Source: Candidatus Brocadiia bacterium
GTDB taxonomy: Bacteria > Planctomycetota > Brocadiia > SM23-32
Direction of reading: 5' to 3'
Assembly: GCA_046538485.1 (NCBI GenBank)
Contig: JBKHIT010000018.1
Span: 17,166 to 81,165, forward strand
Length of the DNA stretch: 64,000 nucleotides
In this document: piece by piece, positions 3,706-64,000 of the stretch
How positions within the stretch are numbered: position 1 is the stretch's first letter
Layout of the letters: each line of letters starts with the position of its first letter
Made by a program: the position numbers and the translations under genes
The notes under the pieces: model-generated
What the model was told of the DNA's origin: nothing
Seen by the model: only the letters and a program-made list of their open reading frames with translations
Databases searched by the model: none

Positions 3706-4380
3706 TTAAAATCGGAACAGCAAACCCATCTGCACCGCACAACCGCTGTAATCGAGATAGTCTGGCGCAAGCCAAGTGCTTGTTGGATCGTCCTCGACGT
3801 CAAACTCAACGTCCCAGTAATCCACCGAAGCACAAAAGGACACACGTCGTCCGCCAGCGGTAACTTTTGCGCCAACTCCCCATCCTGCTGTATCTTCGAA
3901 TTCCACGTCGGAATCCCCCTGCCATTCCGGTGCACTGAAATACATGGGTCTGAAATGGGGGCCCAATGTCACCTTCGAGCCAAGTTTAAATGGAACGCTC
4001 AAATCAGCAAATGCAAACGAAGTAGGCGCTGCTGAATTGAGTAAACTTCCACCGCCGAAGGTAACATCTATATAGTTGATAGGCGTATTGAAACCCACAC
4101 CGGCACTCAATGATGGGACCCAACTGGCATCGCCATCGACTTCTTCATATTCCCATCCGGAACCAGTATAATAATATGTCTCGAATTCCTCCACATCCGG
4201 GCTGATCAATACGCTGGCGGGACGGAAATCCAATATCGCATAGACGGGACGCTCTCGGCCAGTATATACCGGCCCTTGCGAGGGTGCTCTCGCTTTTTCT
4301 TGTGCCAGACCGCTTCTGCTGCACATCAGCACAAGCATAAAAACAATCAAGAGATTAAGTTTGCTTTCTTTAAAAAACAA
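3706..4380 (-). CDS. Putative outer-membrane beta-barrel protein
   Basis: Signal peptide, alternating hydrophobic strands, C-terminal Phe (QMGLLFRF); AGGAGG RBS before the TTG start. Confidence 0.65.
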   Translation of the reverse strand: MFFKESKLNLLIVFMLVLMCSRSGLAQEKARAPSQGPVYTGRERPVYAILDFRPASVLISPDVEEFETYYYTGSGWEYEEVDGDASWVPSLSAGVGFNTPINYIDVTFGGGSLLNSAAPTSFAFADLSVPFKLGSKVTLGPHFRPMYFSAPEWQGDSDVEFEDTAGWGVGAKVTAGGRRVSFCASVDYWDVEFDVEDDPTSTWLAPDYLDYSGCAVQMGLLFRF

Positions 4381-4448
4381 GCCAAACCTCCTTTAATCCA
4401 GGAACCCTATTAAGGGTAGCGAAGTTCCGACTTCGCCTCATCGGTCTG

Positions 4449-4478
4449 ATGATAGGCGCTCTCCAAGTGACCTGTCAA
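4449..4478 (-). promoter_or_regulatory. Putative sigma70 promoter of the beta-barrel gene
   Basis: Minus strand TTGACA-N18-TATCAT. Confidence 0.45.
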
Positions 4479-4503
4479 ACCGAAGCAAAGTTACCATAAG
4501 GGT

Positions 4504-4533
4504 TTGACAGAAGTCGTATCGGGAAAGTAACCT
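4504..4533 (+). promoter_or_regulatory. Putative sigma70 promoter of the lipid cluster (divergent from the previous one)
   Basis: TTGACA-N18-TAACCT upstream of the first ACP. Confidence 0.4.
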
Positions 4534-4619
4534 ATAGTTAGGAAAATACTAAATCTATACTCGGATTCGTTGCCAGGAAATCGCAGATGGTATATGTGCC
4601 ATCTGAAAACGAAACCCCA

Positions 4620-4883
4620 ATGACCGATCCAGAAACCAAAGAAGTCATAAACGACGTATTCGCCGAGGATTTTGAAATCCCCCGCGAGAAACTGCGGCCC
4701 GAAGCGCACATATTTGAAGACCTCGGGCTCGATAGCCTCGATGTCGTCGACCTGATTGCGGCCATTCAAAAGCGGTTTCAGGTACGCGTTCGCGACGACG
4801 AACGCGTGCGTTCGGTACGGACGCTTGGAGATCTTTACGAATACCTGGAAACGGTCCGCAGCGAACTCGAGGCAAAGGATTGA
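4620..4883 (+). CDS. Acyl carrier protein 1
   Basis: EDLGLDSLDVVDL phosphopantetheine motif; small acidic protein. Confidence 0.92.
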   Translation: MTDPETKEVINDVFAEDFEIPREKLRPEAHIFEDLGLDSLDVVDLIAAIQKRFQVRVRDDERVRSVRTLGDLYEYLETVRSELEAKD

Positions 4884-4978
4884 ATAGGCGACCTGGATTC
4901 TTGAAACTGTAACAATGCAGTCCGGCGGGGTAATCGCGTTCGGGTACCTGAATCGATGAATAGACCATCGAGTAGACG

Positions 4979-5722
4979 ATGCTCGTAACCATACAGAATT
5001 TGGTGTTCTGGCCGCTTTTTCTGGCCGCGTCCGCTATTTACATTCCCGTAGCAACCCTCATCATAGCCCCCATTGGTCTGCTTGCCCCGCGACGCTTTGC
5101 CATGCATCGGTTGCGCCGTACGATAACCTGGTATGGCCGGTTGGTTATCTGGTGCGCATGGCCTTTTGTACGGGTAAAATACAAGGATCTGAAACCGGAG
5201 GAAAAAGATGGGTCCTATATATTCATCTGCAACCATCGTTCCTCCTCGGACCCATTCCTCATGGCGTGTTTGCCTTTTGAGTGCGTTCAAATCGTTAACG
5301 ACTGGCCTTTGGAACTCCCTATCCTGGGCTGGCTCGCCCGGCTGGCAGGATATATCGATATAATGAATACATCAATAGAAGAATTTTACGAACATGGTTC
5401 TCGTTTGTTGAATCAGGGTGCATGTATCTGTTCCTTCCCGGAAGGCACCCGATCGGGAAGCCAGCAGATGGGCCCTTTCACAAGCTCGGTTTTCCGGCTG
5501 GCCATCCGGAATCATGCCACTCTGGTTCCGCTGGCCATCACCGGCAATGAAAATATCCCACATAAAGGATCCTGGATACTCCATCCGGGTCTTATCCGCG
5601 TCGACAAATTGCCCGCAGTTACCTGGGATGAGTACGCTGATATGGACGCGTTTCACCTGAAAAATCACGTGCAACAAATTTTGCAGGAGCATATCGACCG
5701 GGTCGAAGGAGATGCTGCATGA
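4979..5722 (+). CDS. Lysophospholipid acyltransferase (PlsC family)
   Basis: NHRSSSD (HX4D) and FPEGTRS motifs; N-terminal membrane segment. Confidence 0.92.
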   Translation: MLVTIQNLVFWPLFLAASAIYIPVATLIIAPIGLLAPRRFAMHRLRRTITWYGRLVIWCAWPFVRVKYKDLKPEEKDGSYIFICNHRSSSDPFLMACLPFECVQIVNDWPLELPILGWLARLAGYIDIMNTSIEEFYEHGSRLLNQGACICSFPEGTRSGSQQMGPFTSSVFRLAIRNHATLVPLAITGNENIPHKGSWILHPGLIRVDKLPAVTWDEYADMDAFHLKNHVQQILQEHIDRVEGDAA

Positions 5723-21221: not shown

Positions 21222-22118
21222 CTAATCCAGCCACTTCGTGTCAAGAACAAGTGTATTGAAGCTGTTCGGATCGGGGTAATAAGCCGAACGGGGATAGTGG
21301 GCAGCGTTGCCCCCCACGAACATCATGTTCGCTCCATCAAGATGGTGCAGCCCGACAGTATGAACAGGGTGGTACTTAGATGGGACGTTACTGGGCCAGG
21401 TTGCGGAACCACCGACCAGCGAACACGCCTCAATGTCGGTGTAATGGCGTGCTCCCCACGACATTGGTCCGCCACACTCAGAGCTTTCAGGAACACATCC
21501 CCATGTCTGACCATTCTCATTATGTGGATTCCCACTGACGAGAAGCGCGTGTGTGGTCGCAAGATTCCTCATTCTCCTGGCACGCACAATACAACCGTCC
21601 GTGTAGCGGAGGTGGTTGCGCCAGGTGCCCCCCTGCGTGAGAGACGTGCTCGTGGCCGGCATTTTGTAATCCACACCGTATCCCCATCCCCACCACCAGC
21701 CTCCGCCTCTTGGCCTTGATTCCGGAGGTTTGAGCGCCGGACACTGAAGCAGCGGAACATTGGGCCTCACCTGCGTATACATAAACGACTGGCTACCGGG
21801 CTGGTACTCGGGACCGCTCTGCAGATAGGTGTAGACGATCGGCCAGAAATTGATGGTGTTCGTAAATTCACTGTATCTTCCGTTGTGCTCGGGGGAATCC
21901 GGCCGACACCACTCGGAATCATTGGGAAGCATACCCTCGTGGTCATTCGCGAACATCTGGAACCCCAAACCGATCTCGCGCAACTGGGAAATACAGCTTA
22001 TGGAACGAGCCGCTGCCCGCGCCCTCTCCAGTGCCGGCATCAACATTGCGGCCAGAATGGCTATGATTGCAATAACAACAAGAAGTTCTATTAAGGTAAA
22101 TGCCTCTTTCTCTCTCAT
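21222..22118 (-). CDS. Prepilin-type N-terminal cleavage/methylation protein (DUF1559-like)
   Basis: [29 protein letters not shown]...[10 protein letters not shown]-terminal H-X9-DG-like [12 protein letters not shown]. Confidence 0.9.
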
Positions 22119-22331
22119 CTCCCGCACCCTCCCTTTTTGATAAAACCCACAATCCAACGTCGAGATTAATATCCCCCCCAAAATTACAAAACTGTTATCC
22201 ACCCACTTCGCTTTGTGCATTTTTATAGCAAAATTCATACTCAACACCTGTAACTTAGTGTACCCCCTGCACAAAGTTTTTCAACCCCCGTGAATGCTAT
22301 TTTGCTGCCGCTAAAAATCTACCCAACGGAT

Positions 22332-62941: not shown

Positions 62942-62995
62942 AAACGCCGAATACGAACCGGTCGTTCCTCCGGCATTTATATGGGAGGTGAAAAA

Positions 62996-63847
62996 ATGAA
63001 AAAGGCATTTACCCTGATCGAATTGCTTGTCGTCATTGCCATCATCGCGATTCTCGCCGCAATGCTCATGCCGGCCCTCGAAAGCGTCCGACAGGCGGCT
63101 TACGAAGTGCAGTGTATGTCCAACCTCCGCCAGATAGGCATGGCCCACCACCTCTATTCCAACGACTACGACGGGTGGATAGCATGGTATGTCGTGGGAA
63201 AAAATGATGACTTCAGAGCGGCCAGAGACTTGGTCGAATATGGCTACCTCGGGGGCAAACCAATGTCCAGTATCGCCCCGCAGATTGATGAAGCACGGGA
63301 TTCCGTCTGGGACGACCCGGCAAAAGAAAAAGGCTATCTCGGAGTCGCAGGAAGCACCTACGGGTCTTGTAATTACACTTTTGCCTATAACATGGAAGCT
63401 GATCCCCGCAAATACGTCGGCTATGACTACCAATATGACGCCAGTGGTGATCCAGTTCCGCCGTATATCGCACTCGGTATGCTTGTTGACAAGGATCTGC
63501 CAATCGCCGGTTGGGGTGTCTACTATGACTCATCGAACCCCCAAAAAGGGCCTTTTCAGAGGACGATCTGGACCTGCAACACGGTGGGCCGTCGATACAG
63601 ACCCGTCGGCCGACACGAAGGACGCGGCGATTTTCAATACTGGCCCCATCCCGGGCATAAGCCCGGCGGCAGCGCAAATTACCTCTACAAAACCGGTGAC
63701 GTCCAGAGCGTACGCCCCCCCGAACCATGGTTTCCTTTCGCACCGTGGTCCGGAACGGAGTTCGGCACAATGTCCAAATGGAGCCCGGACCACTGGAGAG
63801 TCAACGTTATCGAAAAAAACCCGCGCTGGCGGCCGGGGAGCTGGTAA
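62996..63847 (+). CDS. Prepilin-type N-terminal cleavage/methylation protein (DUF1559-like)
   Basis: [25 protein letters not shown]...[10 protein letters not shown]-terminal H-X9-DG-like variant ([10 protein letters not shown]); GGAGGT RBS. Confidence 0.9.
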
Positions 63848-63888
63848 ATCCTGACTTTTGACGCGGCATTTTTACAAAAGGTGCCAAC

Positions 63889-63952
63889 ATGAAAAGAAAA
63901 AAATATAGCTCGGAGACCACGGCAAGGCAGAAAGGATTCACTTTAATCGAAC
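63889..63952 (+). CDS. 5' exon/fragment of a third prepilin-type gene (MKRKKYSSETTARQKGFTLIE...), interrupted
   Basis: Manual translation; GFTLIE is followed by RVPS-stop instead of LLVV. Confidence 0.75.
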
Positions 63953-64000
63953 GTGTGCCCAGTTAAGGCTGGGTAAACTTGTTGGGTGTAAGTCCCAATC
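63953..64000 (+). mobile_element. Probable group II intron 5' end (truncated by the window)
   Basis: Begins GTGTG (GUGYG consensus) exactly where prepilin homology breaks; hairpins GCCCAG/CTGGGT and TTGGG-TGTAAGT-CCCAA resemble the start of domain I. Confidence 0.65.

Follow-up and report, generated by a model that had tools for sequence, protein, structure and literature searches.

An intron end interrupts a prepilin-type gene

The window, by which we mean the whole 64,000-nucleotide stretch of DNA analysed here, ends on the last base (64000) of contig C38, and close to that end lies a gene of the prepilin type that is interrupted after its first codons (Table 1). The interrupted gene opens a frame of 25 codons (63889..63966, forward strand) that translates as MKRKKYSSETTARQKGFTLIERVPS*. 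The original prediction had described this frame as a basic leader and GFTLIE followed by a stop four codons past a switch in sequence, and both the sequence and its translation bear this out. The FTLIE codons occupy 63937-63951, the first base (C) of the next Leu codon is at 63952, and from 63953 onward the window reads GTGTGCCC. This places the switch point at 63952/63953, after ATCGAAC and one base into the Leu codon, as had been predicted, with the intron 5' end, GTGTG, lying at 63953 directly at the exon boundary. Genes of this class (TIGR02532 / PF07963) encode a short basic leader, the motif G-F-x-x-x-E and a hydrophobic helix, and the 5' exon in the window supplies the leader and GFTLIE. 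The two other prepilin genes in the window had been said to carry the site empty, and both do; in the nearer of the two the true start is likely the second ATG (MKKAFTLIE).

Table 1 Features of the window that bear on the intron junction
Feature	Position	Strand	Remarks
Shine-Dalgarno-like AAGGTG	63878..63883	+	putative, as read from the sequence; 5 nt upstream of the start codon of the interrupted gene
5' exon of prepilin-type gene	63889..63952	+	ATG, basic leader MKRKKYSSETTARQKG, FTLIE codons, Leu base 1 (C)
IBS1, ATCGAAC	63946..63952	+	last 7 nt of the 5' exon; complement of the intron EBS1 loop GUUCGAU
Group II intron, first 48 nt	63953..64000	+	GUGUG..., first two domain I hairpins; ended by the contig end; identical to the start of the copy at C20:82316
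Intact paralogue, empty site	62981..63847	+	FTLIE 63008-63022, then LLVVIAII; N_methyl, DUF1559, TIGR02532 30.3 bits
Second intact paralogue, empty site	21222..22274	-	FTLIE codons begin at 22100 on the minus strand

The 48 nt from 63953 to 64000 contain both of the hairpins that had been proposed for them, each where it had been placed, and their predicted fold (-19.5 kcal/mol, z = -3.81) was equalled by 0 of 200 shuffles. Upstream of the junction, where the original prediction had seen no terminator hairpin, none was found (63883-63952, z 0.56, 0 terminator-like sites), and the four 5' exons that were checked for a hairpin gave z values of 0.56, 1.11, 0.43 and -0.52, no better than shuffles, again with 0 terminator-like sites. 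An Rfam search of the last 1 kb of the window returned nothing relevant, 48 nt being too short. That only 48 nt of the intron are visible here follows from the assembly having broken inside a repeat at the end of C38, and the ~3 kb of downstream sequence that the original prediction had proposed to fetch are absent from it. These 48 nt are the start of a mobile group II intron, with its 5' junction inside the FTLIE motif.

The same junction recurs within the genome

The 48 nt were found at seven further places in the same genome (G000), and all eight copies follow the FTLIE codons plus one base (C or T), while the leaders upstream of the eight occupied genes are all different. A junction that falls after FTLIE plus 1 nt in eight of eight genes with unrelated leaders is far beyond chance. 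At five of the other places 42-51 nt match at 100% identity, and variants lie at the remaining two. Five contigs (C38, C56, C49, C42 and C54) are 100% identical over the 42-51 nt left before the contig end, and five others (C143, C140, C99, C138 and C118) have ends that bear the same 48-54 nt running straight into a 3' exon. Taken together, these five 5' and five 3' junctions would account for five full copies of what we term the main family, with interiors that were not assembled or binned, and the pairing of junctions suggests that the copy in the window is very probably one of these five. The main family's only internal copy, at C20:82316, shares the first 51 nt and has lost D6 together with the RT, except for its last ~109 residues. 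A 96% variant at C20:86865 is ended by a contig end, and a ~80% variant at C44:128384 (-) is complete.

A six-frame count in this genome gave 186 F[TS][LI][IVL]E motifs. In 134 of these, four hydrophobic residues come next, as at an intact site, and in 8 the intron does. The original prediction had expected the FTLIELL family to offer many homing sites; this genome has ~134. An exact search with the family 5' end gave 0 matches in genome contigs and 0 in metagenome contigs, so that no full-length element of the main family was recovered, and when the contigs of 4 DNA runs were compared with the C44 locus, neither a joint skipping the intron nor an empty-site allele was seen.

Several further group II introns, belonging to different families, are present in the genome, and four of them exceed the RF02003 threshold. 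Their RTs were seen at C99:8606-9769, C120:7443-8456 and C113:35705-36598, and RF02003 loci at C79:8858, C117:270, C55:761, C113:35236 and C104:2261. The 3' end was read for one of these, the C99 intron (locus L034), whose D6 is ordinary and does not mimic the exon. Two other RNA matches were noted: a tRNA (64.7 bits; L009 535-609, +) upstream of the C20 copies and, near the C44 intron, a below-threshold match to the Acido-Lenti-1 RNA at 30.2 bits (gathering score 37; L010 1215-1279, -, which is G000:C44 about 125214-125278).

Sibling copies supply the rest of the element

The anatomy of the element was read from its sibling copies. The copy at C20:82316, which has the same first 48 nt as the window, runs into the Rfam model group-II-D1D4-4 (39.2 bits, E 6.6e-6, gathering score 49). 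Across the introns this model (RF02003) scored 33-48.2 bits (E 1e-7 to 1e-3), always below its gathering score of 49, and it had no matches in 14 control genomes; domain I is well conserved among the 7 introns aligned. The complete C44 copy is 2067 nt long, starts with GTGTG and ends with AC. It encodes a 424-aa ORF with matches to RVT_1 (1.6e-41) and GIIM (3.7e-11), the motif FADD and no endonuclease domain, and is an RT/maturase of the kind that the original prediction had proposed looking for downstream. The nearest solved RT structures are those of group IIC RTs (7uim, 4e-61; 6ar1, 9e-58), and the ribozyme comprises ~790 nt.

Domains V and VI ending in AY, likewise proposed, were read from the sibling copies, the copy in the window being cut off: domain V, which in group II introns has about 34 nt, an AGC triad and a 2-nt bulge, is followed by a D6 whose bulged A lies 7 nt from the AC 3' end. 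Rfam Intron_gpII scored 33.6 bits at the C44 D5/D6, below its gathering score of 40, and 45 and 47.2 bits at loci L058 and L151, while the main-family D6 at a contig start scored 35.4 bits with the D5-D6 covariance model R1. Over six introns 97.1% of D5/D6 cells were paired and 11 of 29 pairs were compensatory, values reached by 0 of 500 shuffles. In the sibling copies the 3' exon resumes (L)LVVIAII in frame after the intron, as had been anticipated, and joining the C44 exons in silico (...ATT GAA T + TG CTG GTG GTC) gives I-E-L-L-V-V, a normal family sequence. The intron likely splices in vivo, which would restore the protein sequence across the exon junction.

Base pairing probably directs the intron to a protein motif

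EBS1 was identified as a domain I hairpin loop, GUUCGAU, that is conserved in 7/7 introns aligned (GUUCUAU in L058) and is complementary to the last 7 exon bases, AUCGAAC, in agreement with the complementarity to the exon end (...ATCGAAC) that had been put forward as a check. At exon positions -1, -2 and -5, where the Leu, Glu and Ile codons can vary synonymously, the loop base opposite is G or U, so that wobble pairs would accept most codon variants of Ile-Glu-Leu; C/U and A/G variants at these synonymous positions are all used among the occupied sites. A search for EBS2 as a 7-nt stretch able to pair with exon positions -14 to -8 gave none in 6/6 introns. Introns of this clade insert only between bases 1 and 2 of the Leu codon after FTLIE, in prepilin-type (GFxxxE, DUF1559-type) genes.

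The original prediction had likened the intron to the group IIC intron of Oceanobacillus iheyensis, and this likeness is not supported. Group IIC introns insert just after the stem-loop of a terminator or an attC site and recognise a very short IBS1, their EBS1 being 3-4 nt long. The present introns resemble them in having a small RT without an En domain, whose nearest solved structures are IIC, but differ in inserting inside an ORF with no terminator or attC hairpin, in their EBS1 of 7 nt and in a ribozyme of ~790 nt.

A clade of FTLIE-homing introns

We scanned one genome per species, covering 185,579 species, for the pattern FTLIE codons + Y + GTGYGYYC. This yielded 110 loci, 92 of which are intron junctions as judged by a conserved domain I motif or an identical prefix, with at least 15 different 5' sequences among them; 18 of the 110 were set aside as chance matches in unrelated phyla, and two more loci (L076 and L141) look intron-like by eye. 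Further copies after FTLIE codons, for which the original prediction had proposed a search, thus exist both within this genome and, as these 92 junctions, elsewhere. By a hand count of record titles, the 92 loci come from 21 MAGs, with 52 in one Lentisphaeria MAG of 465 contigs, 11, 4, 4 and 3 in four others and 1-2 in each of sixteen. The MAGs are mostly labelled Lentisphaeria, Lentisphaerales, Victivallaceae or Victivallis, with a few Verrucomicrobiia or Planctomycetota and three Bacteroidales or Pseudobacteriovorax; mis-binning probably explains the junction contigs with the labels Bacteroidales (L044, L070) and Pseudobacteriovorax (L058). The distance from junction to contig end is mostly 20-150 nt. 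In the MAG that includes L041, 52 of 465 contigs bear an FTLIE/intron junction, mostly 110-150 nt from the contig end, and the intron is a main cause of the fragmentation of that assembly.

In a tree of 19 RT proteins, from which the ORF filter had dropped L042, L016, L017 and L022, a branch with 100/99 support separates the five FTLIE-site RTs from the others. Among 60 relatives of the window genome the best RT was 44-46% identical, and none of those introns lies at an FTLIE site. We regard it as almost certain that these elements constitute a clade of mobile group II introns homing to FTLIE+1.

Domain 6 carries a copy of the target

In every intron with an available 3' end, the last 19-22 nt read (AGA) GGN TTY ACT YTA ATH GAR C. 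Read in the frame of the 3' exon, this stretch gives (R)GFTLIE plus base 1 of the Leu codon, that is, the 5' half of the target, and it forms the 3' strand of the 16-bp D6 helix that contains the single bulged A 7 nt from the end. The D5-D6 covariance model R1 and a metagenome pattern scan together provided 23 distinct lineages with a 3' end, after the near-duplicates L155, L160 and L232 had been dropped; of the 119 loci in the metagenome scan, 108 were rejected as chance matches without D5. The D6 mimic is present in 23/23 lineages. FTLIE is intact in 20 of them, and the others have FLLIV, FTLTE and FALIE, the C44 copy being one whose mimic is degraded (GFLLIV). Where mimic codons depart from the consensus, 37 changes are synonymous and 4 non-synonymous. 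In 7 control group II introns at other targets (two of them with RF02003 at 108-115 bits) the D6 3' strands are unlike the introns' own 5' exons. L084 and L070, which lack a 3' mimic, are both truncated dead copies and no counter-examples. Within the literature covered, the D6 target copy in this clade is new: the intron type is ordinary, and the target logic is not.

In an occupied gene's 5' exon (L003 1450-1519; G000:C42) a predicted fold joins the SD, GGGUGAU, to the F-T-L codons (AUUCACUC); its z of 0.43 is no better than shuffles. Natural prepilin mRNAs may thus already contain an SD:FTL helix like that of D6.

Domain 6 stays open in the frame of the 3' exon

The length of D6 is 2 mod 3 in 21/23 lineages (50, 56 (x4), 59 (x5), 62 (x3), 65 (x6) and 74 (x2) nt, the exceptions being 55 and 96), a count in which relatedness among lineages overstates their independence. 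Stops in the D6 loops of the same 23 related lineages number 0 in the exon frame and 13 in each of the two others; after shuffling, the loops gave 9.2 +/- 2.9 stops, and 0 of 2000 shuffles reached 0, where again independence is overstated by the relatedness of the lineages. Followed upstream from the 3' splice site, the exon frame meets no stop for 27-316 codons at 22/22 loci, as compared with 0-62 in frame 1 and 0-1 in frame 2. The synonymous-only pattern of the mimic would equally be expected of mere resemblance to the target, while the frame bias of the D6 loop is not explained by the target mimic alone.

Potential start codons accompany this open frame. An in-frame ATG lies inside D6 in 8/23 lineages, the window's family included (MRLWRRG-FTLIE), and GTG is the first loop codon in 3 more. 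This first loop codon stands 6 nt past GRGGTG on the D6 5' strand, a spacing similar to that in the window's intact gene (GGAGGTG, 5 nt, ATG), and the two G's of this SD-like element form two G-U pairs that are invariant in 6/6 introns. When the ORFs that begin at the intron ATG on C143, C140 and C99 were scored with TIGR02532, they reached 35.1-35.3 bits against a cut-off of 16.3, the intact neighbour scoring 30.3. The 96-nt D6 exception has a stop upstream, followed by AAGGAGG, 9 nt, ATG, a Lys/Arg-rich leader MKTKRIKKGLRNRKS and FTLIE. In L103, L154, L058, L161, L169 and C44 the D6 loop has neither ATG nor GTG and an upstream start would be needed; a candidate, an in-frame ATG 38-41 codons upstream within the conserved motif CGAATG, is found in most.

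At locus L287 (G064:C100:82500-88555; 3770-5170, +) an 821-nt ORF-less intron is open in the exon frame nearly throughout, which yields a 466-aa ORF in which the ribozyme encodes the first ~262 residues. This was seen in one lineage only and could reflect chance or selection against stops.

The original prediction held that splicing would be needed to express the pilin-like protein. That need is doubtful, because the intron's own 3' end carries an in-frame start, a leader and GFTLIE. Translation could start in the D6 loop, whose AUG or GUG is preceded by the SD-like GRGGUGA of the D6 5' strand, or else from a more distant upstream AUG, and a start inside the intron would give a prepilin with an intron-encoded leader without splicing. 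Since prepilin peptidase would remove the leader before Phe, the mature protein would be the same whether the RNA was spliced or unspliced, and an insertion that leaves the mature protein unchanged would be nearly neutral, which would explain the 5-52 copies per genome. The D6 helix has a predicted stability of -18 to -38 kcal/mol, and the SD-like element, often together with the start codon, lies in or beside it, so that such a helix would hinder initiation unless D6 were unfolded.

We think it fairly probable that selection keeps D6 as an open frame continuous with the exon. The further proposal, that a functional prepilin is made from unspliced RNA and that D6 is at once a branch-point helix, a copy of the homing site and a translation-initiation cassette, is more tentative, its odds being somewhat below even. 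Taken as a whole, the combination of an FTLIE-homing clade, probable splicing and a surrogate N-terminus supplied by the intron is in our judgement likely to be the best explanation of these loci.

Re-invaded, tandem and damaged copies

Because D6 and the 3' exon together rebuild the target, occupied genes can be invaded again, which would give rise to tandem copies. At L058 two identical copies stand head to tail, 2082 nt apart, with the Rfam D5/D6 match (45 bits) ending where the next GTGTG begins; an identical tandem on a short-read contig could be an assembly loop. At L155/L287 a degenerate solo D5-D6 (33.6 bits, R1) lies 36 nt after an unrelated gene and is followed directly by a different 821-nt intron, and this arrangement cannot be an assembly loop.

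Damaged copies were also observed. At L070 (contig PWRF01000273.1) the intron is cut inside D6, and at L084 (JAGYMJ010000151.1) inside domain I; in each case a separate, complete family gene follows, and that at L070 is preceded by a promoter-like site, TTGACT-17 nt-TATAAT, read by eye. Four genes of G000 carry an in-frame 63-nt insert after FTLIE+C (F codon positions C73:36580(+), C73:30182(-), C73:18914(-) and C19:4070(+)), and these have the FTLIE motif twice and an internal ATG. By eye these inserts are like remnants of a D5 tail and D6, but a relic origin is not supported, model R1 giving no match at E <= 1. At four other places in G000 (C44:138782(-), C7:12647(-), C112:39538(+) and C20:83224(+)) prepilin-type starts end after F(T/S)LIE plus one base and are followed by unrelated sequence, which at one of the breaks continues GTGTGTCCCAC and is not obviously intron-like. 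These broken starts may be scars of intron-mediated rearrangements, or may hold different inserts.

Alternative explanations

The original prediction had itself named an IS end or a contig chimera as the outcome that would undo it, and with only 48 nt in the window and a contig that ends there, the window taken by itself is compatible with an IS or transposon end or with a chimeric join. This is hardly conceivable once the other copies are considered: the identical 5' end runs into an Rfam group II domain I on C20, the related full copy on C44 has an RT/maturase, D5, D6 and an exact in-frame resumption of the exon, there are no terminal inverted repeats and no transposase, and the same junction occurs in 21 other MAGs, which are independent assemblies. 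The IS-end and chimera readings are thereby refuted.

The other alternatives concern D6. Its target copy might serve the RNA and its mobility only, as a branch helix, a rebuilt homing site or a docking site for EBS1, with the copy left untranslated and the open frame a by-product. All mimic bases are indeed paired in D6, where 7 of 16 helix pairs are compensatory; the end of the mimic, AUCGAAC, is the complement of EBS1; there are re-invaded or tandem copies; the very stable helix encloses the start and SD; and variation restricted to synonymous positions is what a target mimic would show. A role confined to the RNA does not predict loop lengths in multiples of three (21/23), however, nor 0 in-frame stops against 13 and 13 with 0/2000 shuffles as low, nor a full AAGGAGG-N9-ATG cassette in one lineage whose upstream frame is closed, and we consider it unlikely, if still a reading of some weight. 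The coding appearance of the loop might instead be inherited, the loop and 3' strand having been repeatedly replaced through recombination with the starts of host prepilin genes, which naturally keep the frame and lack stops. The L153/L157 loop does resemble a natural gene start (SD, ATG, Lys-rich leader), ~134 paralogues offer homology, and truncated or recombined copies stand beside fresh family genes in L070 and L084. Most loops, however, are short GC-rich hairpins unlike natural leaders, the frame is kept relative to D5 and not only to the FTLIE codons, and no donor gene was identified, which makes such an origin improbable. The reading that we prefer remains a D6 that is kept open as a surrogate N-terminus for the interrupted gene.

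Discussion

Among the group II introns that lack an En domain (classes D, E, F), RmInt1 is the studied example of retrohoming by EBS/IBS pairing. The FTLIE-site introns resemble such elements, as a review describes them in general (Zimmerly & Semper 2015, PMC4424553), in their GUGYG...AY boundaries, six-domain ribozyme and an RT + X (GIIM) protein without an endonuclease domain, as well as in site-specific homing, many truncated and ORF-less copies and twintron-like re-invasion. They differ in where they insert, which is the best conserved coding DNA of a family of more than 100 proteins and not a mobile element or intergenic sequence, and in their D6, a helix of 16 bp in which the 3' strand repeats the target and is in frame with the exon.

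A functional parallel lies outside group II introns. Phages and islands that integrate into tRNA genes carry a copy of the gene end that they displace; as in the present case, the insert rebuilds the interrupted gene at low cost and regenerates the target site. Those elements, however, depend on a DNA recombinase and their copy is the attachment site, whereas here the copy is a ribozyme domain of a retroelement and comprises an N-terminal leader and motif.

Unusual 3' ends have been described for other bacterial group II introns, namely those of the B.c.I4 type with a 3' extension (PMC1865049, PMC2691827), and the alternatively spliced Clostridium tetani intron (PMC3919590) likewise affects which protein its host gene makes. 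The B.c.I4 type adds a domain after D6 and the C. tetani intron chooses among splice sites, whereas here D6 itself is both exon copy and open frame and could bypass splicing. In the literature outside subscription journals, to which our search extended, no paper was found that links group II introns to prepilin or pilin genes, to DUF1559, or to Lentisphaerota and their relatives.

Most bacterial group II introns lie outside housekeeping genes, those of classes C-F being without an En domain, and they are thought to survive by avoiding host genes, according to the same review (Zimmerly & Semper 2015, PMC4424553). The present clade does the opposite of avoiding genes, specialising on the most conserved codons of a hugely expanded family, with 5-52 copies per genome. 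Through the design of its EBS1, with G or U opposite the wobble positions, the retroelement can target a protein motif and not a single DNA sequence. Intron junctions fragment the assemblies of Lentisphaerota MAGs, and gene callers will report intron-started ORFs as ordinary prepilins. If the proposed role of D6 is true, it would represent a novel means by which a retroelement renders its insertion neutral, leaving it nearly cost-free inside protein-coding genes and explaining the presence of at least 50 copies per genome. D6 would then be a rare RNA segment in which selection acts at the same time on a ribozyme helix, on a copy of the homing site and on a coding sequence, and leaders derived from the intron may persist in present-day genes.
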